In this document: positions 2,649 through 28,081 of the stretch, piece by piece
Layout of the letters: each line of letters begins with the position of its first letter
Position numbering within the stretch: the first letter of the stretch is position 1
DNA from: Promethearchaeati archaeon
GTDB lineage: Archaea > Asgardarchaeota > Heimdallarchaeia > Heimdallarchaeales > Heimdallarchaeaceae
Assembly (NCBI GenBank): GCA_013166775.1
Contig: JABLTJ010000036.1
Coordinates: 1 to 30,600 of the forward strand
Direction: 5' to 3'
Length of the DNA stretch: 30,600 nt
Program-made: the position numbers and the translations under genes
Notes under the pieces: model-generated
What the model was told of the DNA's origin: nothing
Database searches by the model: none
What the model saw: the letters and a program-made list of their open reading frames with translations, nothing else

Positions 2649-3872
2649 TCAATCTAACGGAAATGTTGCATATCCTCTGAATTCAATCCAATCCTTAAGC
2701 CGTTCCTCAATTATTTCCTGAATCGCGTCTTGATCTAAGCTTCTTGCCATCTCTTCGTCTTGAGTGAACATAGCCATAATATAGCGATCTCCGCCAAATC
2801 TTAAATCCCTTAGGATAAAGATCTCATTAACATCTTTGTCTAATGTATATCTTCTGATTCTTAGAAATGGTTCTCTCATATTTACTATGGTTTCAATAGC
2901 TTCATAATATGCTGTATGTGCTAAATCCTCTAATTCCTCTTGTTCTGAGTACTGAGCGAAACACACATTACTTCTAAAATCATATAAACCAAAGAAATCA
3001 GCTTTAAGCTGCTTAGCAGCCTGTTCTGATGCATCAATAACTCCATGCTGTATAAGTGATATATCTCTAAATATGTGAGAAAAAGCTCCTAAAATGGAAG
3101 ATCTTATCTTTACGCTTGTTCTGAATAAATCTTTAGCAGAATTAAAGTAGGGACTATTGTTTGTCATATATTCAATAATTGAGCTAAAAATCTCTGTTGT
3201 TTTATCATCAATTTCATATTCAGGGTCAGATTTATGAAAGAATATTTTCCAAGGTACCTTGAGTTTTAAGGCATTTGTAACATTTGTAATTTGCTTCAGA
3301 TATTCAAAGCTCTCTTCAAATCTGTCTTTAGCTTGTACATCAACAACATAGATTACAATATCTGTTCCGAGGAAGTATTGCTGAGGATTATTTAGATAAT
3401 CTTCACGATAGACGTTTTGTCCTCCTAGTTCATGAATATGTACATCCATACCGAAAACTTCGATTTTGCTTCTCAACAGTCCTCTCGTCGGTGTGAGAGC
3501 ATATAACTTTTGAAACAATAATGATAATGCACCTCGATGCTTTAGAGCTATTGATAATGAAGTTTTACCTGCATTATCTGTCCCTACCATTACGATTTTA
3601 GCACCCGTCGTAATTTTATCAGTATCACCAACTAAAAGAAGTCGGCTAGCTGCTATCCAGCTGTTTACTCTCTCTTTTGGAATCTTCTTGATTATTTTTT
3701 CGTAATGCTGATCCCACTTACTAGCTAAATCATCAATAGTTTCTAAGTTCATTTCTTTCAATAACTTATATTCTTCTTCTGAAATGTCAAGCAAAGCAAT
3801 TATTGGGAATTTCTTAATATCTTCTTTCTCTTTAAATTCGTCTTTTAGGAGTTTGTTCCTCAGCTCAGTCAT
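2649..3872 (-). CDS. Ras-superfamily small GTPase (Arf/Rag-like) with an N-terminal helical/HhH-like domain and a C-terminal roadblock/longin-like domain
   Basis: G1 GTDNAGKTS, G2 PTRG, G3 ELGGQ, IYVVDVQ, G4 HKSD and G5 TSV. The ORF track starts at 3932; MTELR at 3872 is the likelier start. The flanking domain calls are tentative. Confidence 0.85.
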   Translation of the reverse strand: MTELRNKLLKDEFKEKEDIKKFPIIALLDISEEEYKLLKEMNLETIDDLASKWDQHYEKIIKKIPKERVNSWIAASRLLLVGDTDKITTGAKIVMVGTDNAGKTSLSIALKHRGALSLLFQKLYALTPTRGLLRSKIEVFGMDVHIHELGGQNVYREDYLNNPQQYFLGTDIVIYVVDVQAKDRFEESFEYLKQITNVTNALKLKVPWKIFFHKSDPEYEIDDKTTEIFSSIIEYMTNNSPYFNSAKDLFRTSVKIRSSILGAFSHIFRDISLIQHGVIDASEQAAKQLKADFFGLYDFRSNVCFAQYSEQEELEDLAHTAYYEAIETIVNMREPFLRIRRYTLDKDVNEIFILRDLRFGGDRYIMAMFTQDEEMARSLDQDAIQEIIEERLKDWIEFRGYATFPLD

Positions 3873-4033
3873 CTTCAATCTTCTCCAGTATGATGAAGGG
3901 ATTAAACAAGTTTCTTGATTACACTTATTCATAAGTCAAATAAGTATTTTGTTGACAATCATATGATAGTTTCTTTATCTTCTTTGCATAAATAAAGTTT
4001 AAAAAGGCAAAAGCTAGCGCTTTAATAAATTGA

Positions 4034-6155: not shown

Positions 6156-6878
6156 ATGATTACATTAGCAATATTTTCTGATGTGCATGCCAACTTAGAA
6201 GCTTTAGCTACTGTAGTTGACTATATCAATGATTTATCACCAGATATTATCATTTATTTAGGTGATACAATAGGTTATGGACCTAATCCAAAAGAATGTA
6301 TCGAAATCGTAGAAAAAATAGCTCAAATTCATGTGGTGGGAAATCATGATTATGCCATATTCACAAATAATTTCACATACTTTAATCCCCTACCAAAAAT
6401 ATCACTGTCCTGGACTAAAAATCAAATTTCAGAATATGAAATACAACTATTAGGTTCTCATCCTTTTTTCTCCATTTTTCCTCTTTTTGTTACAGAAGGC
6501 AATGCTATGTTCGTTCATGGTTCTCCAAGAAAACCTTTACGGGACTATGTATCTCCCAATTTACCTTCTTGGTCATACAACATGTTTTTCGAAATAACTC
6601 GTGAATATACAGAAATTGATTTTCTTTTCTTAGGACATACACATAAACCCCTACATATCGTTAATGAACAGAAGCATCTTCTTAATCCAGGTTCTGTAGG
6701 TCAACCAAGAGATAAAGATCCTAGAGCATCCTTCATGATTTTCAAAATCAGAGAAAAAACCAAAGAATTTGAATATGAGCATATTAGACTTGAATATGAT
6801 GTTGATACCACTTGTAAAAAAATGGAAGAATATAACTTTCATCCATTTCTCATAAACAGACTCAAACGTGGAATCTGA
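6156..6878 (+). CDS. Calcineurin-like metallophosphoesterase (YfcE/ApaH-related)
   Basis: Motifs SDVHAN, LGDTIGYG, GNHD, VHGSP, GHTH and NPGSVGQPRD. Confidence 0.92.
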   Translation: MITLAIFSDVHANLEALATVVDYINDLSPDIIIYLGDTIGYGPNPKECIEIVEKIAQIHVVGNHDYAIFTNNFTYFNPLPKISLSWTKNQISEYEIQLLGSHPFFSIFPLFVTEGNAMFVHGSPRKPLRDYVSPNLPSWSYNMFFEITREYTEIDFLFLGHTHKPLHIVNEQKHLLNPGSVGQPRDKDPRASFMIFKIREKTKEFEYEHIRLEYDVDTTCKKMEEYNFHPFLINRLKRGI

Positions 6879-6891
6879 AGAAAGGGAATGA

Positions 6892-7962
6892 TTACTCGTT
6901 CTCAGTTTTACTTTCTCCTAGTTCTTCATCTTTTTCTATTTTTTCAAGTTCCTTTTCTTTAATAAAGATAGATGAGATGGCTGCTGTTGAGAGGGTTAAT
7001 CCTGTCCCTACTAGAGTTTGATATATCACAACAGCTGCAGCTATTGCTGAAGTAATTGTTGCAGATAGACCTTCAAGGAGTGCCTGTGCAGTTATAGTTC
7101 CTGTTCCTAAGCCAGCTGGTGTGATTATGCCTGCTAACAAAGTAATTGATGATATGCTTGCTGCATCAATGAATAAAATAGGTTCACTAAACGCTAGTAA
7201 GGTTAATTTTAATGAATAAAATTCTAGTACCCACCGGAGAACTGTAGTAATTACTACTCCTGTCGCCATGAGCTTTTGCTTGTAAAGATGTTTCAGTGAT
7301 ATATAATAATTTTCTAAAGCAGGATGGATTACTCTCTCTAACCATTTTTCTCCTTTTGCTGAAAATTTACCAGTTATCACCTTAAGGATTTTTAATGCAA
7401 AATAACCTATTGGAGGGAAAAATAAGATAAAGGATAATAGAATTGTTACTCCTAAAGATGCATAAAATATTATTCTATAGATTATAATATTTTCTGGGTT
7501 AATTTTGGGAATTGTAATTGCTAGAGCAACAATAAAGAAAATTAAAACAAATAACATGTCAAGAATTCTGAAAAAAACTATGGCGGCTATAGAAGAAGAA
7601 CGGGGAACGGAAACAGATCTCTTATTTATCTCAACACTTACAATTTCTCCTGATTTAAGCGGACCAATTGTGCTAAATCCATATCCAACAAAAAAAGGAA
7701 TAAGGAATCCTTTGAATGTTAAATGATCTGACGATGCCCTAAGCAGTATGTAAAAACGGTATGCTTTGACGAAAAGACTAGTCACCATTAAGAGGAACGC
7801 CAATACCAACAAGTAAACTATTGTTTCTCTATATGCTAGAAAAGTATCTGCTAATTCACCTTTTAACCATAAACGAAGAAAAAAATATGTAAGTGTGCCA
7901 ATCATGATAAGAATGACAATAATCCGAAAGAGGTGTTTTTTAAAAAAACTTGCAATGCTCAT
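6892..7962 (-). CDS. Lysylphosphatidylglycerol synthase TM-domain / flippase-like membrane protein (UPF0104)
   Basis: Polytopic membrane protein with KAYRFYILL, GPLKSGE, FRILD and TPAGLG, matching the family patterns R.W..LL, P.R.GE, ER..D and PGG.G. Confidence 0.8.
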   Translation of the reverse strand: MSIASFFKKHLFRIIVILIMIGTLTYFFLRLWLKGELADTFLAYRETIVYLLVLAFLLMVTSLFVKAYRFYILLRASSDHLTFKGFLIPFFVGYGFSTIGPLKSGEIVSVEINKRSVSVPRSSSIAAIVFFRILDMLFVLIFFIVALAITIPKINPENIIIYRIIFYASLGVTILLSFILFFPPIGYFALKILKVITGKFSAKGEKWLERVIHPALENYYISLKHLYKQKLMATGVVITTVLRWVLEFYSLKLTLLAFSEPILFIDAASISSITLLAGIITPAGLGTGTITAQALLEGLSATITSAIAAAVVIYQTLVGTGLTLSTAAISSIFIKEKELEKIEKDEELGESKTENE

Positions 7963-8059
7963 CGGGTTAAACCTTCATGAATATGAAATTAAATCCGTTA
8001 AACAGAATCAACAAATGGGAGGAGAAAGGAAGAAAAATAAATCTATACCTTTTCTTCTA

Positions 8060-8221: not shown

Positions 8222-8430
8222 TTCTAATTTTCACCTTTAGAATTGTTTCTTGCGGTTTATTACCAATTCTTCATTTAAAAAATTTGTGTAAGTTTCCATC
8301 TGTTAAATTAATATAATTTCTAATTCTACAAACTAAATCTTAACAAAAATGTTACTTAAGAGAATTTTGTCGGAATATTTATTGTTTTTAAATTTCTAAC
8401 CTGATTTAAAACTAAAAGTTGGTCTAGAAA

Positions 8431-8814
8431 TTATTTTTCAGACCATAATCTAAGAATATTACCAAAAGGATCTTCAAATGTAGCACAAAATCCATGTTCA
8501 TCAGAAATCTTTGACTTACCTTCTAGAGTTTTTCCTCCTGATTTTTCTATGCTTACTAATGTATCTTCTATACTTTCAGTACTAATATAAAGCATGAACT
8601 CTCCTTTCATTTCTCTTTCTGAAAGTTCAAATCCTCCCCCTACTCCTTCTTCTGTGTCTTTGAAAAATGCATAAGTTTCTCCAGTTATTGTTACCTTCCA
8701 TCCAAAAACCTTTTCAAAGAATTCTTTTGCGATAGTCATATTCTTAACAGGAATTTCCATATGGACAATTTTATGATTCTTTTGCAGAATATCACCTCTA
8801 AATTTACAAACCAT
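8431..8814 (-). CDS. VOC (glyoxalase/bleomycin-resistance) family protein
   Basis: Motifs IVHMEIPV, AKEFFEKVFGW, GGGF, IEKSGGK and FEDPFGN. The true start may be CTG at 8787 (see findings). Confidence 0.88.
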   Translation of the reverse strand: MVCKFRGDILQKNHKIVHMEIPVKNMTIAKEFFEKVFGWKVTITGETYAFFKDTEEGVGGGFELSEREMKGEFMLYISTESIEDTLVSIEKSGGKTLEGKSKISDEHGFCATFEDPFGNILRLWSEK

Positions 8815-8821
8815 GATGTAG

Positions 8822-8829
8822 TTATATAA
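8822..8829. promoter_or_regulatory. Palindromic TATA box (TTATATAA), probably shared by the divergent VOC and bshC genes
   Basis: Perfect palindrome in the 49-bp intergenic gap, about 35 nt upstream of the bshC ATG. Confidence 0.5.
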
Positions 8830-8863
8830 GAATTGTTAAGAATGGAGAAAATAAATCATTTTT

Positions 8864-10486
8864 ATGGATACTATAGGAGATCTTTATGATGATTTAATTC
8901 GTAAAGATACAAGTTTTCCAGATTCCAAATATTTCTATGGGGCGATTGCTAAAACTTATGGAGATGCTGTTGATTTAGCTTTTCAACTACCAAGACTTGA
9001 TATAAATGAGGTTCGCATGGAAAAGTTGAAAACCATTTTAAGAGGTTTTCATAAGAAACTTGGGATTCTTACACCAAAAGTTGAAGAACATTTAGAAATG
9101 ATACAAGATGGAGTTGTTATAGCTGGACAACAAGCTACTATTTTTGGAGGATCAGGAATAATAGGAAATAAAATAGCAACAGCTGTTAAGATATCTGATA
9201 TTAGTAAGAAAAAAGAAAAACCTTTGGTTCCAGTTTTTCTCATAAATACTCATGATGGAATACAATCAGAAATTACAACTATTCACCTGATGAATAATCA
9301 ATCAGCAAATAGTAAAGCTATTCATCTATCTGATTTAGTTGAAGGTGTAGCTGCTAATACAATTAAAACTGATAATTATAACTGGCTAAATGAGAACTTA
9401 GATATTATTAGGAATATATTTAGTGAATTTAAAACATCTTTAGAAAAAACTGAATATAAATTATACTCTGAAAAAGTAGAACATCTCTTAACATTTCTTA
9501 GAGAAACATATCGCACTTCAAAAACTATTGAAGATTGGATAGCTTTAATTTGGGGAATTCAATCAAACATTATCAATGATTGGGGGGTCATTTATATTCC
9601 ATCATCTAATCCTGAAATAAGGAAGATGACTGCTGAAAGTTTTATTCCCTTCTTAAGAAATAGAAATGAATACATAGACGAGTTCAATCAAGCTACAAAT
9701 AGAATAGCAGAATTGAATCTTCGTCCAACCACAGCAAGAAAAGAAAGTGATTATTCTCCCTTCTTCTATGAATGTCCAAATGATGGTTTCCGGGTTACTT
9801 TTTCTTGTTCAGAAGATAATAATGATGTGGTTTTCCAAGGTAAATGTCCTCTAGATAAAGAAGAATATAGCATCAAAGTCAATAAGGATGACATTGATTT
9901 ATCAGATTATGCTACTAATCTATCTCCAAGATTAGATACAAACCAAGCTCAACTTCAAACAATTTTACCCACATACATCAGAGTTTCAGGGCCAGGAGAG
10001 ATAAACTACAATGCTCAAGTAATACCTGCTGTTAGAAAAATAGGAATTAATTATCCATTATATGTAAAATATAATAGAATACATTACAATACTCCATGGA
10101 TAGAAAAAATATCAAAAGATCCTTCACTAGAATCACACACCTTATTTTCTTCAGAGTTTTTCAAAACACTTGGAGTTTTATCTAGAGCTAGGAGGAAGGA
10201 TGAGAAAGAAGAACTGCATAATGCATCCAACTTACTTTCTGAGAAACTAATTTCAAAGATTACCCTATTAAAATCTATTTCTGAAGAACCAACAAATCCA
10301 ATATCGAAATACAAATCTTGGCAATTTGGTATGTATGATGAATTTCATCAATGGCAAGAAGTTAGCTGGCCTTGGTTTGTAATGGCATCAATTTCAGGAA
10401 TAGGAGATTACCTTGCTTCGTATTACAGATATTACTCCAAAGACTCATTAGTTGGTGGTATTGGTTACATAAATACCAGATTATAA
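8864..10486 (+). CDS. bshC: Bacillithiol biosynthesis cysteine-adding enzyme BshC-like
   Basis: Motifs VIAGQQATIFGG (cf. TGQQ..LFGGP), PLVPVF, LSP and SGPGEINYNAQ (cf. GGPGE.AY.AQ). The 540-aa length is typical, and it lies next to bshA. Confidence 0.8.
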   Translation: MDTIGDLYDDLIRKDTSFPDSKYFYGAIAKTYGDAVDLAFQLPRLDINEVRMEKLKTILRGFHKKLGILTPKVEEHLEMIQDGVVIAGQQATIFGGSGIIGNKIATAVKISDISKKKEKPLVPVFLINTHDGIQSEITTIHLMNNQSANSKAIHLSDLVEGVAANTIKTDNYNWLNENLDIIRNIFSEFKTSLEKTEYKLYSEKVEHLLTFLRETYRTSKTIEDWIALIWGIQSNIINDWGVIYIPSSNPEIRKMTAESFIPFLRNRNEYIDEFNQATNRIAELNLRPTTARKESDYSPFFYECPNDGFRVTFSCSEDNNDVVFQGKCPLDKEEYSIKVNKDDIDLSDYATNLSPRLDTNQAQLQTILPTYIRVSGPGEINYNAQVIPAVRKIGINYPLYVKYNRIHYNTPWIEKISKDPSLESHTLFSSEFFKTLGVLSRARRKDEKEELHNASNLLSEKLISKITLLKSISEEPTNPISKYKSWQFGMYDEFHQWQEVSWPWFVMASISGIGDYLASYYRYYSKDSLVGGIGYINTRL

Positions 10487-11602
10487 TTTATCTAAAGTTT
10501 TCGAATACCATTCTACATATTTATCTGCAATTTTTGATGATTCGAATTTTTCAATAACTTTTCGTCTTCCTTTTTCTCCCATCTTTTTTACAAGATTTTC
10601 ATCATCTAGCAATGCACTCATATATTCAACGAATTCCGTTTTATTGCCTAATTCGTAAATGAATCCATTTATTTTATGATCTAGAACTTCTGGAATGCCC
10701 CCAACATTAGGAGCTATCACTGGAGACTCACACGACATAGCTTCAGCGATAGTCAAACCAAAACTCTCGTTTGTGCTTGCAGATAGAAGAGCTGATCCGC
10801 AGTTATATATGGGAGTTATTGATGTTCTTACTCCTTGGAAGCTAACATGTTCTCGAATTCCAAGTTTATTAGCTATATCCTCACATTTCTTCCTTTCGGG
10901 ACCTTCACCAACCATAATTAATCCAACTTCAGGATAATTTTTTACAATTTCAGCAAATGATTCTACAATGAAAGGAGCGTTTTTAATTGGTCTAAAGTTG
11001 GAAACATGGACAAAATTTTTCTCATATTTAATTCGAAAATCACAAAGTTGTACATCTATTTTCCTATACTTTTCTGTATCAATTGGATTGTAAAGAACTT
11101 CAATATCATTCTTAGCAGAAAATTTTGCTTCAATTTCTCCTTTTAAATAATCAGAGACAGTTGATAGGCCATCAACATTTTCAAAAACATGTGATATTAC
11201 AGGATTATATGCAGGATCTACTCCTAATGTATGAATATCTGATCCATGAGCTGTTATTCCTACTGGAATTTTAGTTATATTTTTAGCTATATAAGCAGAT
11301 ACTCCAACTGGGATTGCATAATGAATATGCAAGAGATCTAGATCCCATTTCTTAACTATATTAACAAGTTTAGAAGCTGCAAGTATTGTATAAGGTGCTC
11401 CGATGTCCCTAAATAGAGGATAGGATAGAATATCAACCAAATCTAAGGTAATGTTAGGGTGTCGAGAAGTACGCAACAAAAAGGGTGTATCATAACTAAT
11501 TAAATGAATATCATGTCCTTTTTTAGCTAGTTCAATTGCTAATTGTGTAGCAACTATTCCAGATCCACCTACTGTTGGAAAACAATTTATTCCAATCTTC
11601 AT
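10481..11602 (-). CDS. bshA: N-acetyl-alpha-D-glucosaminyl L-malate synthase BshA (GT4 glycosyltransferase)
   Basis: The N-terminus MKIGINCFPTVGGSGIVATQL, then YPLF..PY, HIHYAIP, HGSDI, HVSNFRPIK and ESFGL..AEAM, is characteristic of BshA. Confidence 0.9.
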   Translation of the reverse strand: MKIGINCFPTVGGSGIVATQLAIELAKKGHDIHLISYDTPFLLRTSRHPNITLDLVDILSYPLFRDIGAPYTILAASKLVNIVKKWDLDLLHIHYAIPVGVSAYIAKNITKIPVGITAHGSDIHTLGVDPAYNPVISHVFENVDGLSTVSDYLKGEIEAKFSAKNDIEVLYNPIDTEKYRKIDVQLCDFRIKYEKNFVHVSNFRPIKNAPFIVESFAEIVKNYPEVGLIMVGEGPERKKCEDIANKLGIREHVSFQGVRTSITPIYNCGSALLSASTNESFGLTIAEAMSCESPVIAPNVGGIPEVLDHKINGFIYELGNKTEFVEYMSALLDDENLVKKMGEKGRRKVIEKFESSKIADKYVEWYSKTLDKL

Positions 11603-11683
11603 AATGTATGTAGTTTTGATAAGGCATTAAAAAAAATTCTGTATGTAAACATAAATGATGTAAATTTGAACATTCTTGCAGAT

Positions 11684-12235
11684 TTAGTTATTATCATACA
11701 ACTTTGAGATGATTTTTGTTTGGATTTTCACAACATCTTTACTACTCTTTGCTTCCTTATAGGCATCTAAATACTCTTTATTTATTTTATAAAATTCTTC
11801 TCCCCATTTTACCAAGGAGAGGATTTTCATCGCTTGTTTCTTTGCTCCCAATATTATAAGAGAAGCACTAATAGCTTCTAGAGTACTCAATTTTGAAGGT
11901 ACTCCATAGTTTGTAGGATTTGCTGCAACTAGAAAGGGAAGCGCTCTCCCTTTCCCTTTACTTAAAATCTTTTTCCCACTCTCAATATCATTCCATGAGC
12001 AATCAACGCCTACTATTCCGAATTTCTCTGCAAAATCTTTGTCTGCAGGAGATAGAGCTATATCTGAAAAGGGAGTTAGAACAATATTATTAGTTCGAAT
12101 TTTATTTGAATTAATTTCTACAGCTTTATCAAAACGAAGAATACGTGAGGCAGTACATATCTTGGGATTACATGTACGTAGATTGCAAATAAAGACTCTC
12201 AATTCTTTTTCAGTAGGGGAATTCATTATGACCAT
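11684..12235 (-). CDS. tsr3: 16S/18S rRNA aminocarboxypropyltransferase Tsr3 (DUF367)
   Basis: Motifs CNPKICT, LSPADK, VDCSW, RALPFLVAANPTNYG, KLSTLEA and KWGEEFYKIN. Confidence 0.93.
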   Translation of the reverse strand: MVIMNSPTEKELRVFICNLRTCNPKICTASRILRFDKAVEINSNKIRTNNIVLTPFSDIALSPADKDFAEKFGIVGVDCSWNDIESGKKILSKGKGRALPFLVAANPTNYGVPSKLSTLEAISASLIILGAKKQAMKILSLVKWGEEFYKINKEYLDAYKEAKSSKDVVKIQTKIISKLYDNN

Positions 12236-13264: not shown

Positions 13265-14830
13265 CTAGATTTTTGGCCATTTGAAAGCATTTCTCAGATG
13301 CCAGAACCTATACCAATTACTCGGGTCTACCTCTTCTAAAGGTGCATATTGTACTCCAAGAAAATCCAATCTTTTAGAGAAACGAGAAAGACGTCCTCTG
13401 AAATCTTTGTAATTTCTCCTTTCTCTTAGAGACCAACCTGTTTCTGCTATTGCAGAGAGTCTTGGAAAAACTTGCCATTCCAGTCTTTCGATTGTAGGTA
13501 TCCATTCAGTCCAAATAGTTGCTTCAACACCAAGAATATTTGTATAGTATTTTTCATCCAAATCTTTAGGAACTGGTTCAAATGCATATGTTTTCTTCAA
13601 GGGAGTTACGATGTAATTGTAATCAAGATAATAACGGAAAAATCTGGATACAACAACATTTCCCCCTTCCTGAATATGCGTCATTACTTGTTTCTTGTTC
13701 ATTTTCCACCAATGAATAATTACATTTCTATCAATCTTGTTATGTAGAATTTCGTTCCATCCCATTGTAATTATTCCTTTGGATTTCAAAAAGGATGCAA
13801 TTCTATCAGTAAAATAATGATGAAGTGATTGAACTTCATCGATGTTCTCATTTTTCATTCTTCTCTGACATTGACTGCATTCTTTCCATCTCCTCTTTGG
13901 TACTTCGTCCCCTCCGATATGAATGATTTCTGAAGGAAATAGAAATATTACTTCTTCAAGTACATCCTCTAAAAAACGAAAAGTCTCTTCTTGTCCTGCA
14001 CAAAAGATATTTGAAAAAATTCCTGGTTTGATTGCAACATCTAGAATCTCTTTTCGACAACTTAATTCTGGGTGTGAAGCAATTGCAGCAGTTGCATGAC
14101 CTGGCATCTCAATTTCAGGAATAACAGTAATAAATCTCTCTTGAGCATATCTCACAATTTCAAGTATATCTTCCCTTGTGTAAAATCCTTGGTGGGGTTT
14201 ACCTCTATACTTTTTTCCAATATGTTTCACAATTTTGGAATCTTTTCTTTTAGATCCTTTCTCTGTTAGTTTCGGGTATTTTTTAATATCAATCCTCCAG
14301 CCTTGATCATCCGTTAGATGCCAATGAAATACGTTCATTTTCATTAATCCCATAAGATCTAATAAGTGCTTAATAGTCTTAATTTCTTGATAATGTCTAC
14401 TAACATCTAACATTACTCCCCTCCATTTGAAACGAGGTTTGTCTTCTATTTTTATGCAAGGAATCTTCCATTCAGTATTTTTATTGAAAGAAATTTTTTC
14501 ACACTCTGGAGGAAGGAGTTGACGTAATGATTGTAATCCATTAAAAATCCCATGAGGACTAGTTGCAGTCAAACGTACGAAATCAATTGTTACTATAAGT
14601 AAATAACCCTCTGATTCCAACTGAGATAATGTTTGATCTATTTCAAAGATTATACATTCCTTGTCCTTTTTTGATGATGTTCTCTCCAATATCTTATCTG
14701 TTGAATTTAGGATGAATTCTATGAAGAAATCAACTATCTCTTCTAATTCATCATCAAAGAAAATTTGTGTTTTTGAGTTAATAACAAAGGAACCCTCTTT
14801 GTAAAGAATCTTTTCAGGTAATGGAATCAT
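13265..14830 (-). CDS. Beta-N-acetylhexosaminidase (GH20), no signal peptide
   Basis: Motifs DKPRFKWRGVMLDVSRH, FHWHLTDDQGWR, IPEIEMPGHA, catalytic HIGGDE, YLDY and IWTEWI. Confidence 0.95.
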   Translation of the reverse strand: MIPLPEKILYKEGSFVINSKTQIFFDDELEEIVDFFIEFILNSTDKILERTSSKKDKECIIFEIDQTLSQLESEGYLLIVTIDFVRLTATSPHGIFNGLQSLRQLLPPECEKISFNKNTEWKIPCIKIEDKPRFKWRGVMLDVSRHYQEIKTIKHLLDLMGLMKMNVFHWHLTDDQGWRIDIKKYPKLTEKGSKRKDSKIVKHIGKKYRGKPHQGFYTREDILEIVRYAQERFITVIPEIEMPGHATAAIASHPELSCRKEILDVAIKPGIFSNIFCAGQEETFRFLEDVLEEVIFLFPSEIIHIGGDEVPKRRWKECSQCQRRMKNENIDEVQSLHHYFTDRIASFLKSKGIITMGWNEILHNKIDRNVIIHWWKMNKKQVMTHIQEGGNVVVSRFFRYYLDYNYIVTPLKKTYAFEPVPKDLDEKYYTNILGVEATIWTEWIPTIERLEWQVFPRLSAIAETGWSLRERRNYKDFRGRLSRFSKRLDFLGVQYAPLEEVDPSNWYRFWHLRNAFKWPKI

Positions 14831-19049: not shown

Positions 19050-19703
19050 TTATTTATAAGGCATTATTTGTATAGCGATATTTTCGTCAGTTAATTCTAC
19101 ATCTCTAGCTGCTCTTTTGATAGCTTCTTTTGCAATCTCAACCATTTCCTCAGTTGTAAGATCTTCATTGTATTTTTCTTTCAGATAAGCAATTGCTTCT
19201 GAATCTCCTTCTCCCATTGCTTTAGCTTTGCATGAAGCTACACTACCTCCAGGATCAACAAATTGTAGATTTGGTCCTGTATGATCAATTCCTCCAAAGA
19301 GCATTCCCACACCAAAAGGTCTTAAACCTCCTTGTTGTGTGAAAAGTTGCACGTAATCACCTATTTTTATGGCTAAACCTTTAACATCAATTGGATCTCT
19401 ATAGGTCAACCTGAAGATTTCAGCTTCTAGACGAGCTCGACTTATTAATATTCGTCCATCTGCTGCTACTCCTGCAAAAATAGCTTGAATATTTTCTGAA
19501 ATTTTATGAATTTTCAGATCAGGTTCATTTAGGTCAACTACTCTAAGTAAGCCTGCTAAAACAACACCGCTCTTGCTTTTGATTCCTATAGCGATACTTC
19601 CTCTTCGAACTGATTCTCGAGCATATTCTGTTTGAATAATTCTCCCTTCAGGAGAATACATTACTGTGCTTCTGTCATATCCCATCGATTGTGGACCCAA
19701 CAT
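19050..19703 (-). CDS. psmA: 20S proteasome alpha subunit (divergent, C-terminally short)
   Basis: Alpha signature YDRSTVMYSPEGRIIQTEYA, plus G..ADGR, TQ.GG.RPFGV and DPGG; 217 aa. Confidence 0.93.
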   Translation of the reverse strand: MLGPQSMGYDRSTVMYSPEGRIIQTEYARESVRRGSIAIGIKSKSGVVLAGLLRVVDLNEPDLKIHKISENIQAIFAGVAADGRILISRARLEAEIFRLTYRDPIDVKGLAIKIGDYVQLFTQQGGLRPFGVGMLFGGIDHTGPNLQFVDPGGSVASCKAKAMGEGDSEAIAYLKEKYNEDLTTEEMVEIAKEAIKRAARDVELTDENIAIQIMPYK

Positions 19704-19704
19704 T

Positions 19705-20370
19705 TTATTCTTCCTCCAAAACCTTAATTATATCTTCAGAAGTCAATCTTCTAACTCCTTTTTTGTTCACGACTGCTACGTCCATTCCGTCACCAGTTGC
19801 TGCATCTCTACTAATTGCTGTAGCTAAAGCTTTGATAGCTATTTTGAGACCTTCTACTTCGGTAAGATTAGCTTTCCATCTTGATTCCAGAACACCAATA
19901 GCGATTGGGGATCCTGAACCTGTAGAAGCAAAATCTTCATCACTGATTCCACCTGCCATATCAAGTGTAAATACATGTGGTCCTTCATCATCAAGTCCAC
20001 AAACCATCATATTTACCCAGTATGGAAAGTACGATCTATATTGTTCATACATTATGGATGCTAACAGATTCCCTGCCATCTTTGTCGATGGTGCATAACC
20101 TCTTCCTAATTCATAGAGGTTAATATTTGCTCTAGTTAGGTTAACTAGATACTGAGCATCGGAAACCATACCTGCAATAGTTGCTACTGTATGTTTGTTT
20201 AATTCATGGAGTTTTTCAGCTTTCTTTGAAGCTACAAATGTACCCATTGAAGCTCTTCTATCTGCTGCTGCAATTATTCCGTCTTTTATTCTTAGTGCTA
20301 CAGTTGTAGTACCATGCTTTGGTTCCATATATTGATTATTGGGCATTCCATTGAAATTTGGATTATTCAT
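19705..20370 (-). CDS. psmB: 20S proteasome beta subunit with propeptide and catalytic Thr
   Basis: Processing site HG|TTT, plus AADRRAS, K33, AGMVSDAQ, TGSGS and RDAATGDG. SD GAGGTAA at 20375..20381. Confidence 0.95.
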   Translation of the reverse strand: MNNPNFNGMPNNQYMEPKHGTTTVALRIKDGIIAAADRRASMGTFVASKKAEKLHELNKHTVATIAGMVSDAQYLVNLTRANINLYELGRGYAPSTKMAGNLLASIMYEQYRSYFPYWVNMMVCGLDDEGPHVFTLDMAGGISDEDFASTGSGSPIAIGVLESRWKANLTEVEGLKIAIKALATAISRDAATGDGMDVAVVNKKGVRRLTSEDIIKVLEEE

Positions 20371-24121: not shown

Positions 24122-24772
24122 TCATAACTCTGAATGTTTTATCTTGTAAAAGGGACTATTTTTCTTCAGAGGAATTTGCATGAAAGCTTCAGCATATTTG
24201 ACAGATGCTTGAGTACCTCTCATCAAAGTTCTGTAACGATGAAAATTAATGTAAAAATCGTCTCCACCTTTGTGTAGTTGTGATTTATAACATCTAATAG
24301 CTTTCTCTTTCTTTTGATAAAATTCAGTTATATCGATAAATATATGGGGATTTGGAAGCAAAACTGTAGTTTCTGAAGTATAAAGTTTGGATACAAGGTG
24401 GGGATTTTCATATTGTGTTTCATGAGCTGCCCATTCAATACATTCTCTAACAATCTTAAACGTTGATTTATGATCAATATGATAATCCTCCTCAATATGA
24501 GTAATGATTATATCTGGTTTAAAATCTAATATAAATTCTATAAGCCTCTGTGTTATTAGTTGTTCATTTTTATGTACATCAGGATAATCAAAAATAAGAT
24601 TCTCCTCAATCCCCAATGCTTTAACTGCTTCGAAATATTCAGATTTCCTAACACTATCTGAAGATAAACAAACAGTAATTACTTGATCACCTTCTGCTGC
24701 GTACTTAGCTATTGTCCCACCTGTGCTAAGAGATTCATCATCAGGATGAGCAAAAATAAATGCAAGTTTCAC
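24122..24772 (-). CDS. PIG-L/LmbE family deacetylase (candidate BshB)
   Basis: Motifs FAHPDDE, GGTIAKY, RKSE, HIDH, YKSQ and YAEAF; GTG start. Confidence 0.88.
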   Translation of the reverse strand: MKLAFIFAHPDDESLSTGGTIAKYAAEGDQVITVCLSSDSVRKSEYFEAVKALGIEENLIFDYPDVHKNEQLITQRLIEFILDFKPDIIITHIEEDYHIDHKSTFKIVRECIEWAAHETQYENPHLVSKLYTSETTVLLPNPHIFIDITEFYQKKEKAIRCYKSQLHKGGDDFYINFHRYRTLMRGTQASVKYAEAFMQIPLKKNSPFYKIKHSEL

Positions 24773-24823: not shown

Positions 24824-25843
24824 CTAATCTTTTTTCTTGAGTGAATTTGTAGCATGGTATCCAGTTTTATATCCATCACCCATCAAAATTGGGGCGTAAT
24901 CTAATTCTCCTTTAACAGTTCCTGCAGCAAAAACACCCTCAACATTGGTTGAGCCGTTCTCATTTGTTTTGATGAATCCTTCTGATGTCTTTTCTAGATT
25001 TAGATTTGCGAATATTGAAAAATCAGGTTTATCCTTTAACTCAATGAATACTCCATTAACAGATATGTCTTTTACTTCATCATCTTCTCTATATCTCAAC
25101 CCTTGAACCATTTGTGTTCCAGAGATTTCTATTGTACTCAAATCTATTCCTGTTTTTATTACGATGTTTTGAGCGAGTTGTAATTTTTTCAAGAATCTTT
25201 TATCACACTTGAGTTCATCAGTTGGACATAGAAGTGTAATTTTTCTGCAATATTTCCTTAGAAAAAGTGTTCCTCTTGCTACAAAATTACCTTTTCCAAT
25301 AATGGCAACTTTCTTTCCGCGATAAAGAGCACCATCGCATACTGCGCAATACGATACTCCTTTATGTTCAAATTCATCCTCTCCTTTAATTGTTTGTTTG
25401 AGTTCTGGTACCCCTGTAGATATTATGATAGCATTTGACTTAATGGTTTCTTGTTCAGTTTTAATTTCGAATCCTGATTCACTTTTTGAAACAGATGATA
25501 TCATCTCATTTGTAACAATTATCTTTGGGAAATCTTGTTTCATTTCCTCAGGTACTTGAGTGTCAGATGTTTCCTCGGCTCGTTCTTCACCTAGTTTATC
25601 TTGTGCAAATTCAAGGTTAAAGCTTTCAACTTGTTGAACAAGTTGTTGGATGAAATCTACTCCAACAATCTTATTTATTCCAGGAATATTCTCAATCTCA
25701 CCTTTTTTTGCAGTATTAGAATCAAAGGGGATTCCAAATAATTTAATTTTTAAATCTGGATTTCTTGAATAAGCTGCTATTGCTGCTGATAGTCCTGTTA
25801 AGCCAGAACCAATGATAGCTAAGTCACAATTATTATTTTCCAT
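24824..25843 (-). CDS. Thioredoxin reductase-like flavoprotein (TrxB family, atypical)
   Basis: FAD motif IIGSGLTG, IENIPG, KGVSYCAVCDG (CxxC) and TNVEGVFAAG. The NADPH-binding motifs are altered. Confidence 0.85.
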   Translation of the reverse strand: MENNNCDLAIIGSGLTGLSAAIAAYSRNPDLKIKLFGIPFDSNTAKKGEIENIPGINKIVGVDFIQQLVQQVESFNLEFAQDKLGEERAEETSDTQVPEEMKQDFPKIIVTNEMISSVSKSESGFEIKTEQETIKSNAIIISTGVPELKQTIKGEDEFEHKGVSYCAVCDGALYRGKKVAIIGKGNFVARGTLFLRKYCRKITLLCPTDELKCDKRFLKKLQLAQNIVIKTGIDLSTIEISGTQMVQGLRYREDDEVKDISVNGVFIELKDKPDFSIFANLNLEKTSEGFIKTNENGSTNVEGVFAAGTVKGELDYAPILMGDGYKTGYHATNSLKKKD

Positions 25844-25924: not shown

Positions 25925-26146
25925 TTAGTTATCGTTATTTACGATGAAATAAAAGACACTTCTCATATCTGAAAGATTACTTCGTTTAACGATTAAACCA
26001 AGTTCTATAAGTCTCCTTAACGCATACCTAGCTGTTCTAGCTGGTATTGCTGAAGCTTTTATCAATTGTTTCTGGGTTAAAGGACCCTTCTTCTCTAGAA
26101 TAGATAAAAGTTTCTTCCCTGATACTGGTATTTCTTCATCTGCCAT
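25925..26146 (-). CDS. Small winged-helix (MarR/ArsR-like) transcriptional regulator
   Basis: GPLTQKQL...IPARTARYALRRLIELGLIVKRSNLSDMRSVFY; SD-like AAGGGGA upstream. Confidence 0.88.
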   Translation of the reverse strand: MADEEIPVSGKKLLSILEKKGPLTQKQLIKASAIPARTARYALRRLIELGLIVKRSNLSDMRSVFYFIVNNDN

Positions 26147-26179
26147 GCATTATCCCCTTGCTTAGTTTGTAATACCACT

Positions 26180-26209
26180 GTAGTACTTCACGCACTACCT
26201 TTATAAAAG
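26180..26209 (-). promoter_or_regulatory. TATA box (TTTTATAAAG) abutting the inverted repeat GTAGT-N9-ACTAC, a candidate operator
   Basis: The dyad at 26180..26198 lies between the TATA box (26199..26209) and the start of the wHTH gene. Confidence 0.4.
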
Positions 26210-26500
26210 CAATCTCAGATTTTCATCCGCGATTACTTCGATTTCTTTGCGGGGGGAGTTTTTCCGCAATACTATATAATCTTGAACTGCTTTTAATAGT
26301 GGATATTTTTCTCGTATTATGATGCTATATAGGTGATTTACTTAAGTATTTAAACCTAAATCATGTAAAAATCATTTAAAAGTAGGTAATACTCCAGAAT
26401 TTCAAAGTTTTGTAAACTCATTATTTGATACCTTAACAAAATACTAGTAGAAAATTTAATAACGATAAACAATCCTTATGTTTTTCTGAGTGATGTTCTA

Positions 26501-26959
26501 GTGAGTCACACTAATGAAAGTTCCCCTGAAATTTACCATTTAGCAAATCAACTCCAAAGAATTAACTATCTTGGCAATGTCCAAACTATTCAAATCGAGT
26601 TTGAATTTATTGCAGAAGATAGAAAAAATGAATTAGAAATAGTTTTTAATGATTCAACTGGTATTGGCAAATATAAAGCCGATATGATTATTTTAGAACA
26701 AATATCTGGTAGGGACATGCTAGAAATTATTAACACTCTACACAGCATTGGAACAGTTTTTGGAGATCTATCAGCAATAGATGGTATAACAGCTTTAGTT
26801 GAAATCAACTATAAAGGTGAAACATACTTCGTTGTAGTATCTTATAACCCATTAACAAGTGGTTTGGAATTAATCTCAACATCTGAAAGCAAACTCTATT
26901 TTGAGTTACTGAATTTTATAAGAACCAAATGGGCACTCTCTAAAACCTTCCTAAAGTGA
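26501..26959 (+). CDS. Hypothetical protein, possibly with a roadblock/longin-like fold
   Basis: 152-aa ORF with a GTG start and an SD-like GAGTGA upstream. It shows a helix, beta-strands and a C-terminal helix. Confidence 0.6.
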   Translation: MSHTNESSPEIYHLANQLQRINYLGNVQTIQIEFEFIAEDRKNELEIVFNDSTGIGKYKADMIILEQISGRDMLEIINTLHSIGTVFGDLSAIDGITALVEINYKGETYFVVVSYNPLTSGLELISTSESKLYFELLNFIRTKWALSKTFLK

Positions 26960-26986
26960 TAACCTCTTCTAGATTGGGTTATAGAA

Positions 26987-28081
26987 TTACGATTCAAAAC
27001 TAAATGGTTTATCTCTGAGTAATAAGAAGAGAAGTTTTAGATTTTGCTCAAGTTTTTCAGATTGAATGTTCAAATTATTCTCCATTATTTTCTCACTGAT
27101 ATCATATAGCAGATATGAAGCAACATGAAAATCGATTGTTAACCCACTAGGATATAAATCGAAGAGACTGAAATTGGAACCTATATTTTCTAAGGCAAAA
27201 TTATATCCCTCAATAAATGCCATAATATCTTTCTGTGTTTCATCAACAGTTCCATATTTTCTGAATTCTTTGATACATGGTTTTGCGAAGAATGTTCCTA
27301 TATCCTCTGATCTATCTCTCCCTAACATTACAAATTCTGGATCAAGGATATAGATTTTTATTTTTGGTGGAAACTCACTCAGTATCTCTTGTATTGGAGC
27401 TGTTATTTCTGAGGAAAACAAAAGATTACCTTGATGAAAATCACCATGTATCATAGTTGTTCCTAGTGACTCTTCCAAAGCTATGAAAAAGGGAAGAGTT
27501 AACTCAAGAATTTCTTGCTCAATGCTATAATCTTCTATTGCAGATAGAAGGTATAAAATGAGTTTCTTATATGGCTCACTTGAGAAGTTACCTTTTTCCA
27601 CTCCATGAAAAGCAGCTAGTGTTTGCCCTGCAAGTTGATATTTATAGTCTTTTTCCATTTGTGTTTCTCTGAAGCTTTTTCCTGATACTCCTTCATATAT
27701 TATGCATCGGTTTTGAGAGCTTTTGTAGATTATTTTAGGTATGTAAATCCCAGGGAAACGTTCTGGAACTGAAGAAATAAGCGTATGATTCTTAATCTCT
27801 TTTTCAAATCTAGATTCATCTGCAGAAAATTTCACAACTAGGTTTTCAGTTTGCTTACCTGTGTCTGTATTAAGATAATACGTTACAAAATGCACTTTTG
27901 ATTTTGAAGTTCCCTTTTCTACTGACTGAACATCCTCAATTGAGATTAAATTCGGTGATTCTCCTGTATTCTCTAAAATTTGTTCCTTAAAGAAATCTTG
28001 CAAACAATCCCCTATCTGTGTAAATAATGTTCTCATTTTCTGTTTCTTTCTTACAGAATCCGCGGATGTTTCTTCAGTCAC
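26987..28081 (-). CDS. Aminoglycoside phosphotransferase/choline kinase-like (protein kinase fold) enzyme
   Basis: Motifs LVVKF, KE, IYEGVSG, LAAFH, Brenner motif HGDFHQGN, ILDPE and EDIG. Confidence 0.85.
   Translation of the reverse strand: MTEETSADSVRKKQKMRTLFTQIGDCLQDFFKEQILENTGESPNLISIEDVQSVEKGTSKSKVHFVTYYLNTDTGKQTENLVVKFSADESRFEKEIKNHTLISSVPERFPGIYIPKIIYKSSQNRCIIYEGVSGKSFRETQMEKDYKYQLAGQTLAAFHGVEKGNFSSEPYKKLILYLLSAIEDYSIEQEILELTLPFFIALEESLGTTMIHGDFHQGNLLFSSEITAPIQEILSEFPPKIKIYILDPEFVMLGRDRSEDIGTFFAKPCIKEFRKYGTVDETQKDIMAFIEGYNFALENIGSNFSLFDLYPSGLTIDFHVASYLLYDISEKIMENNLNIQSEKLEQNLKLLFLLLRDKPFSFES

Follow-up and report, generated by a model that had tools for sequence, protein, structure and literature searches.

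A putative bacillithiol-type biosynthesis gene set with a divergent BshC-like enzyme in the Asgard archaeal family Heimdallarchaeaceae

A three-gene set and its enzymes

We analysed a 30,600-nucleotide (nt) stretch of DNA, referred to below as the window, which is a contig (JABLTJ010000036.1, here C6) of a Heimdallarchaeaceae metagenome-assembled genome from marine sediment (GCA_013166775.1; 3.85 Mb, 88.7% complete), and found that it carries three genes whose joint product is probably a bacillithiol-type thiol. The genes are bshA (10481–11602, − strand), encoding a 373-residue glycosyltransferase of family 4 (GT4); an Asgard-type bshC-like gene (8864–10486, + strand), encoding a 540-residue, putative cysteine-adding enzyme; and a bshB-like gene (24122–24772, − strand), encoding a 216-residue PIG-L/LmbE deacetylase, which is missing from the gene list of an earlier note made from the letters of the window. 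Because this deacetylase is the orthologue of the one encoded next to bshA in other Asgard families, the pathway is complete here but split in Heimdallarchaeaceae, and this completeness of the three steps makes a bacillithiol-type thiol the best reading of the set. The proposal of the earlier note, that the lineage makes bacillithiol or a variant of it, thus survives in a qualified form: BshA, a BshC-fold protein and a PIG-L deacetylase are present and conserved across Asgard archaea, but BshC and BshB score below the equivalog cut-offs of their families.

The bshA and bshC-like genes converge, and direct reading confirms that, as described earlier, both stop codons are packed into one TTATAA hexamer (10481–10486), with the TAA of the + strand gene at 10484–10486 and the reverse complement of the TAA of the − strand gene at 10481–10483. 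The hexamer is also found in a relative of the same genus (L023). The GT4, which had been assigned to BshA by a signature, is confirmed as such by its score of 352.9 bits against the BshA equivalog model TIGR03999 (cut-off 273.7); the next family reaches 121 bits. The protein has the two-domain GT-B/GT4 layout (PF13439 and PF00534), and in phmmer searches its residues 1–367 are collinear with crystallised BshA from Bacillus anthracis (2JJM/3MBO, 3e-75) and Bacillus subtilis (5D00, 1e-72), with a further full-length match to Staphylococcus aureus BshA (6N1X).

The BshC-like protein matches the Pfam model PF10079 (Rossmann-like_BshC) with 92.4 bits, above the gathering threshold of 27. Its match to the BshC equivalog model TIGR03998 spans profile positions 39–437 of 529 and reaches 99.2 bits against a cut-off of 265.8, and the Pfam model of the C-terminal region, PF24850, gives no match by sequence. 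A model of the protein was predicted by AlphaFold2 from an alignment of 13 homologues (predicted local distance difference test 89.8, predicted template modelling score 0.92). Foldseek matches this model to the structure of B. subtilis BshC (4WBD) with an E-value of 3.7e-20, and VIA superimposes the two with a Z-score of 33.2 and a root-mean-square deviation of 2.9 Å over 452 residues, pairing residues 1–538 of the model with residues 11–539 of the chain. By this comparison, the BshC fold is present in the predicted model over its full length, C-terminal helical domain included. The structural runners-up are class I LysRS (Z 21) and, also far behind, GluRS, MetRS and CysRS (CysRS Z ~9–11). Furthermore, the motifs GQQ and GPGEINY are common to the BshC-like protein and B. 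subtilis BshC. The gene at 8864–10486 is therefore a real bshC-like gene by both fold and PF10079 match, and it is divergent, as had been claimed, falling well short of the TIGR03998 cut-off yet encoding a complete BshC fold. The earlier note's own ground for refutation at this gene, a lack of the fold or of an HMM match, therefore does not apply.

The BshC-like protein contains a cysteine motif (residues 304–331, encoded at 9773–9856, + strand) that the earlier note described as an insert, CPND...C...CPLD, that may bind zinc. Specifically, CPND occupies residues 304–307, the middle cysteine is C315, and CPLD occupies residues 328–331. Two alignments, one with 13 Asgard-type proteins and one with 73, show C328 to be invariant and C304 almost so. 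In more distant Asgard-type BshC proteins, the first turn has CxxC or Cx3-4C and the second has CxxC, a four-cysteine zinc-ribbon pattern. The Heimdallarchaeaceae clade has the pattern CPxD...C315...CP[L/I][D/N/E]. In the AlphaFold2 model, C304 and C328 both lie at the ends of predicted strands (300–303 and 321–327). The pattern described in the earlier note is thus real and clade-specific. Its reading as an insert was rejected, because the region aligns, with only a small gap, to a cysteine-free β-hairpin region already present in 4WBD. We propose that the motif is a rewired, degenerate pair of zinc-ribbon hairpins, in which an ancestral CxxC...CxxC zinc ribbon of Asgard-type BshC would have been changed to Cys/Asp in Heimdallarchaeaceae.

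The deacetylase carries a PIG-L domain (PF02585, 84.7 bits), and its best solved relatives are BC1534 (2IXD, 1.9e-16) and BshB1 (6P2T). Its residues H9, D12 and H101 align with H12, D15 and H113 of BC1534, the His/Asp/His zinc ligands listed for that protein (PMC5790435). When the cluster-linked PIG-L genes of nine Asgard loci were compared with the genome, their best match was 24122–24772 on C6, far above two paralogues, and the match was reciprocal. The PIG-L orthologue adjoins bshA in five Asgard families (f2, f4, f6, f11 and f17, in our numbering of families). In Heimdallarchaeaceae, the deacetylase gene lies 10–24 kb from bshA and bshC wherever both are on one contig, and it may have moved there out of an ancestral three-gene cluster.

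In the window, the deacetylase gene lies 51 nt downstream of a co-oriented gene for a divergent flavoprotein related to thioredoxin reductase (TrxR-like; 24824–25843, − strand, 339 residues), with which it may now be co-transcribed. Each of 30 Heimdallarchaeaceae genomes, from five genera, has an orthologue of the TrxR-like gene directly upstream of the PIG-L gene and co-oriented with it. A search of 16 genomes from three sister families, in which the PIG-L gene is near or next to bshA, returned none at E ≤ 1e-40. The orthogroup is limited to Heimdallarchaeaceae: its lowest-scoring member reaches 262 bits, and the next proteins, at 177 bits, are ordinary TrxRs.

Distribution and phylogeny in Asgard archaea

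We surveyed one sample of 300 Asgard genomes for the two convergent genes. BshA is above its cut-off in 134 of the 300, and the BshC model matches in 170, only 10 of them above its cut-off. BshA and BshC-like proteins occur, respectively, in 27 and 26 of 28 genomes of family f1, in 11 and 11 of 11 genomes of f2, in 3 and 3 of 3 genomes of f4, in 69 and 69 of 76 genomes of f11, and in 16 and 17 of 19 genomes of f17. In f14, no BshA was found in 67 genomes and weak matches to the BshC model were found in 4; in f5, there is no BshA and there are only very weak BshC matches. The two genes thus co-occur family by family, the kind of evidence by which BshC itself was first recognised, and in most genomes they are adjacent. 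The pattern covers three major Asgard groups (f1–f4 of the window's order, the largest family f11, and f17), and BshA proteins named Promethearchaeota and Thorarchaeota are among the matches. If the product is a bacillithiol-type thiol, the presence of the system in these three groups would therefore mean that it is of long standing in the lineage to which the eukaryotic host is related.

Gene order was compared at ten Asgard bsh loci, nine of them all-against-all. In f4, f11 and f17 the order is bshC-like, bshA and a divergent PIG-L gene, and f6 has a bshC-bshB-bshA tandem. The gene families that recur across Asgard families are just three, namely BshA (9 of 9 loci), PIG-L (9 of 9) and BshC-like (8 of 9); the ninth locus, L031, encodes a canonical, bacterial-type BshC that does not group with the other eight. 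The ten BshC proteins above the cut-off are likewise of this canonical bacterial type, and they come from nine f6 genomes, all of one genus (g15), and one f24 genome. At L031 (G229:C90) and L012–L021, which represent f6, a family of the same class, and the one f24 genome, bshC, bshB and bshA form a bacterial-type tandem, and BshC scores ~385 bits. The canonical operon of f6 and f24 looks like a separate acquisition or replacement.

A profile search of 1.8 billion representatives returned a discrete Asgard-type BshC set of 58 clusters at E < 1e-30. Complete members of these clusters align over their full length, and some clusters are fragments. Bacterial BshC proteins come next, at ~105 bits, mostly on profile positions 10–403. 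In an unrooted BshC tree from a quick search, the 20 Asgard-type rows form one side of a branch with a Shimodaira–Hasegawa-like approximate likelihood ratio test (SH-aLRT) value of 99, and the f6 genes nest in the bacterial-type group, whose representatives we take to be bacterial. In a BshA tree, also unrooted and from a quick search, the Asgard BshAs other than those of f6 lie outside a group of all sampled bacterial BshAs (SH-aLRT 93). The trees argue for old residence in Asgard archaea over recent transfer or contamination and, being unrooted, give no direction of transfer.

These results bear on the possibility that the bsh genes of the window are a recent transfer from bacteria or a contaminant of binning. 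Bacillithiol is experimentally known from bacteria only (PMC7278568), and f6 and one f24 genome do hold a bacterial-type operon whose BshC nests among bacterial-type sequences. For the genes of the window, however, both trees set the Asgard type apart from bacterial sequences, and the genes are present in 26–27 of the 28 sampled genomes of the family. The contig bears a Gtr1/RagA-Arf-like GTPase gene, TSR3 and proteasome genes and has a uniform G+C content of ~32% along its length, and the order and content of the neighbourhood are kept in closed or near-closed Heimdallarchaeaceae genomes. The nearest homologues of the window proteins in a protein database search carry the name Candidatus Heimdallarchaeaceae. 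On the synteny and the two trees, we rejected recent transfer and contamination, which we consider extremely improbable.

The predicted product and its recycling

By analogy with the bacterial enzymes, BshA would join the GlcNAc of UDP-GlcNAc to L-malate, the PIG-L zinc deacetylase would take off the acetyl group to leave GlcN-malate, and the BshC-fold enzyme, with a Rossmann core like that of class I aminoacyl-tRNA synthetases and a degenerate zinc ribbon, would put cysteine on the free amine. Together they would yield bacillithiol itself or a closely related Cys-GlcN-malate variant, serving as a cytoplasmic thiol buffer.

The BshA-BshB-BshC pathway of B. subtilis, B. anthracis, S. aureus and Deinococcus radiodurans comprises the same three families in the same logical order, and its genes are often clustered. 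As in that pathway, the BshA of the window passes the equivalog cut-off, the deacetylase has the zinc ligands of BshB, and the BshC-like protein has the BshC fold with its GQQ and GPGE motifs. Unlike their bacterial counterparts, the BshC and BshB of the window are under their cut-offs, BshC has a pair of zinc-ribbon-type hairpins, degenerate here, and the C-terminal region of Asgard-type BshC is barely matched by bacterial profiles. No Bdr/YpdA, BrxA/B/C or FosB was found in the archaeal host. The MshA-MshB-MshC pathway for mycothiol in Actinobacteria has the same logic, with a GT4, a PIG-L deacetylase and ligation of cysteine by an enzyme like class I aminoacyl-tRNA synthetases, and MshC, like CysRS, is a zinc enzyme. 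The window proteins, in contrast, score far below the cut-offs of the mycothiol families (BshA against the MshA model, 67 bits versus 462; the deacetylase against the MshB model, 53 bits versus 224), and the fold of the last enzyme is that of BshC and not the CysRS type of MshC.

The linkage of the TrxR-like gene to the deacetylase gene, together with the absence of Bdr and Brx from the genome, makes the TrxR-like protein a candidate reductase for the oxidised thiol or for thiolated proteins. The protein scores 205 bits against the TrxR model TIGR01292 (cut-off 343.45) and 61 bits against that of YpdA (cut-off 340). It keeps the redox motif CAVC, has GKGNFVA in place of GGGxxA, CPT in place of HRR and GT in place of GD, and carries an acidic insertion of ~30 residues. 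The genome encodes five other TrxR-family paralogues, three of which are nearer to canonical TrxR (295–325 bits). By sequence, the solved proteins closest to the TrxR-like protein are ordinary low-Mr TrxRs; at E ≤ 1e-15, none of the matching chains bears the name Bdr or YpdA. Bdr (YpdA) belongs to the same TrxR fold family but lacks the CAVC disulfide and is no orthologue. FFTR, DDOR and DFTR are NADPH-independent TrxR-like enzymes. Like the TrxR-like protein, FFTR and DDOR are without the NADPH motifs GGGxxA and HRRxxxR, whereas the ~30-residue acidic insertion and the change of GD to GT set the TrxR-like protein apart from Bdr, FFTR, DDOR and DFTR alike.

A separate locus, L006:1414–2601 (G000:C5), encodes a 395-residue fusion of a glutaredoxin/mycoredoxin-like domain to a TrxR. 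The first domain has a CSDC motif and scores 75 bits on TIGR02200 (cut-off 89.5), and the TrxR part has CAIC and scores 309 bits. The fusion is possibly a built-in redoxin-reductase pair.

Several points weigh against a bacillithiol-type thiol. The BshC-like protein, besides its shortfall on TIGR03998, is only ~17–18% identical to B. subtilis BshC in structural alignments, and the deacetylase reaches only 91.7 bits on the BshB1 model TIGR04001 (cut-off 182.5), although BshB1 is still its best NCBIfam family. Reconstitution of the BshC reaction has yet to be achieved, even for the Bacillus enzyme (PMC5790435), so the amino acid added here is a guess, and in no archaeon has bacillithiol been detected to date (PMC7278568). 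In the 88.7%-complete genome, there is no Bdr/YpdA orthologue (best score 80.9 bits against 339.9, TIGR04018), and a genome search found no BrxA/B or BrxC and no match to PF06491 or TIGR04019. Thioredoxin stays the default substrate of the TrxR-like protein, since it retains the CxxC typical of true thioredoxin reductases. Finally, a PIG-L and BshC-like pair in a glycan-biosynthesis cluster is among the non-Asgard relatives closest to Asgard-type BshC, because of which the wider BshC-like family cannot be limited to soluble thiols.

The last of these points, along with the position of the BshC-like protein in a clade of its own far under the equivalog cut-off and the unsolved chemistry of BshC itself, favours a related product, an aminoacyl-glucosamine glycoside. 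In this alternative, the Asgard-type enzyme would use a different donor or acceptor, placing another amino acid on GlcN-malate or modifying a sugar of a glycan or lipid, and the product might be no redox thiol at all. The glycan cluster (L115:4354–6767), which belongs to a sister clade, surrounds its PIG-L and BshC-like pair with GT4/GT1 glycosyltransferases, a polysaccharide deacetylase, a UDP-GlcNAc 2-epimerase, a methyltransferase and PMT_2, suggesting aminoacylation of glucosamine in glycans. In the window, however, equivalog score and full-length match mark the glycosyltransferase as a true BshA and not as a polymer-building enzyme, and the conserved partners at the compared Asgard loci are the three pathway genes only, with no flippase or polymerase. 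Moreover, the 88.7%-complete genome yielded no further dedicated pathway to a cysteine thiol: neither a γ-glutamylcysteine ligase of the GCS2 type nor EgtD was found. A CoADR-like gene on contig C75 reaches 501 bits, short of its cut-off of 579. We therefore hold an aminoacyl-glucosamine glycoside to be an unlikely product, and a bacillithiol-type thiol a fairly likely one.

That BshA and BshC occur in Asgard archaea is already published, and the idea of bacillithiol genes here is not new. A review counts 39 InterPro hits in archaea for BshA and as many for BshC, most of them from Asgard archaea (Rawat and Maupin-Furlow 2020, PMC7278568), and the NCBI Prokaryotic Genome Annotation Pipeline already names as BshA and BshC the Heimdallarchaeaceae homologues that are 58–92% identical to the window proteins; both concern the same genes as those of the window. 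The review gives hit counts only, with no deacetylase, synteny, Asgard-type clade of zinc-ribbon BshC or TrxR-like/deacetylase operon, and beyond it we found nothing on bacillithiol in Asgard archaea in the papers searched. For the zinc-ribbon-type BshC and for the family-wide TrxR-like/deacetylase operon, no prior description was found in those papers. Because the core claim is already in the review and in database names, the value of the present analysis lies in these details and in their testability in cultured Asgard strains.

If the product is a bacillithiol-type thiol, it would be the first glycoside thiol in Archaea and a redox buffer widespread among the closest relatives of eukaryotes, bearing on how the mostly anaerobic Asgard archaea handle oxygen and electrophiles. 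The divergent zinc-ribbon BshC would be an independent second version of an enzyme that still has an unsolved reaction in bacteria, and it may prove more tractable for reconstituting that reaction. The TrxR-like/deacetylase operon would offer a concrete candidate for the missing recycling step, in which a TrxR-like flavoprotein with CAVC and without the NADPH motifs may serve as the reductase of thiolated proteins or of the oxidised thiol. The further suggestion that Heimdallarchaeaceae run a self-contained bacillithiol-type redox system, with NADPH-independent recycling by the TrxR-like protein in place of Bdr and Brx and with a zinc-ribbon BshC rewired to Cys/Asp, is speculative, and we put it forward as a doubtful but specific possibility.

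The VOC gene, the spacer and the surrounding genes

Divergent to the bshC-like gene is a gene for a protein of the VOC family (glyoxalase/bleomycin-resistance fold; 8431–8814, − strand, 127 residues; PF00903, 40.2 bits). The 49-nt spacer between the two contains the palindrome TTATATAA (8822–8829), which the earlier note took to be a TATA box shared by both genes. The palindrome occurs once in the window against 2.6 expected, and at least one copy is present in 93 of 100 shuffles, so its occurrence alone is not beyond chance. Its centre is 38 nt from the bshC ATG, which makes it a candidate TATA box for bshC. The annotated VOC ATG, at 11 nt, is too near for an archaeal TATA-to-start distance, and the sharing of the box by VOC is thus the part of the claim that does not fit. 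In the relative G142, TTATATAA and its flanks are kept, and the distance from the palindrome is 39 nt to the ATG of bshC and 33 nt to that of VOC, a placement that would suit a bidirectional archaeal promoter; the window codon matching the VOC start of G142 is CTG.

The earlier note tied the VOC gene to bacillithiol, and it could be supposed that the VOC protein is a bacillithiol-dependent enzyme, either a FosB-type S-transferase or a GlxA-type glyoxalase I, coupled to bshC by a shared bidirectional promoter. Firmicutes do have bacillithiol-using VOC enzymes (PMC5790435), and in every genome where both genes were located, namely G000 and 10 genomes of the genus, VOC and bshC are divergent neighbours, which, with the conserved flanks of TTATATAA and its position suiting both starts in G142, would accord with such a coupling. 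On the other hand, of 24 further genomes of the genus only 12 have a VOC homologue, and the family's other four genera, represented by 6 genomes, have none. The gene is absent from all other Asgard bsh loci examined, and its positional conservation within one genus is explicable by shared ancestry. The coding sequence has an in-frame stop in two genomes, G145 and G157, and the window itself has the start-codon arrangement described above, with an ATG too close to the palindrome and CTG at the G142-equivalent start. The protein scores 16.5 bits against the FosB model NF003152 (cut-off 171) and 21.2 bits against the glyoxalase model TIGR03645 (cut-off 262), and its best solved relative is 2R6U, an uncharacterised VOC protein (8.7e-11). 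On these family scores, we rejected the protein as FosB or glyoxalase I, and a bacillithiol-dependent role for it is quite improbable. The proposed tie to bacillithiol is thus weak, and we take the VOC gene to be a recent, dispensable neighbour of bshC, outside the core.

The two genomes with a broken VOC gene also have a stop in the TrxR-like gene. The TrxR-like and VOC genes, with one in-frame stop each, lie at 6259–7206 and 26128–26484 of G145:C125 and at 7061–8008 and 26929–27279 of G157:C88. The stop is TAA in the TrxR-like genes and TAA or TGA in the VOC genes, within the matched stretch in each case, and could reflect gene decay, assembly error or recoding.

The DNA of positions 8300–11700 was found in three DNA runs of a single marine-sediment study, two of which are possibly the source data, and no RNA run is among the sequence runs containing it. 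Elsewhere in the window, the Asgard-type gene for a Gtr1/RagA-Arf-like small GTPase (2649–3932, 427 residues) has an N-terminal extension of ~110 residues and, in relatives of the family, the same neighbours and 64–81% identity. Proteasome alpha/beta genes lie at 19050–20370. A gene for a β-N-acetylhexosaminidase of glycoside hydrolase family 20 (13265–14830, 370 bits), 1.7 kb from bshA, was not seen at the corresponding place in three family relatives and is probably a local insertion. TSR3, encoding the 16S rRNA aminocarboxypropyltransferase (11684–12235, − strand; PF04034, 148.5 bits), adjoins bshA and bshC in three families of the order (f1, f2 and f4), which is probably plain synteny.

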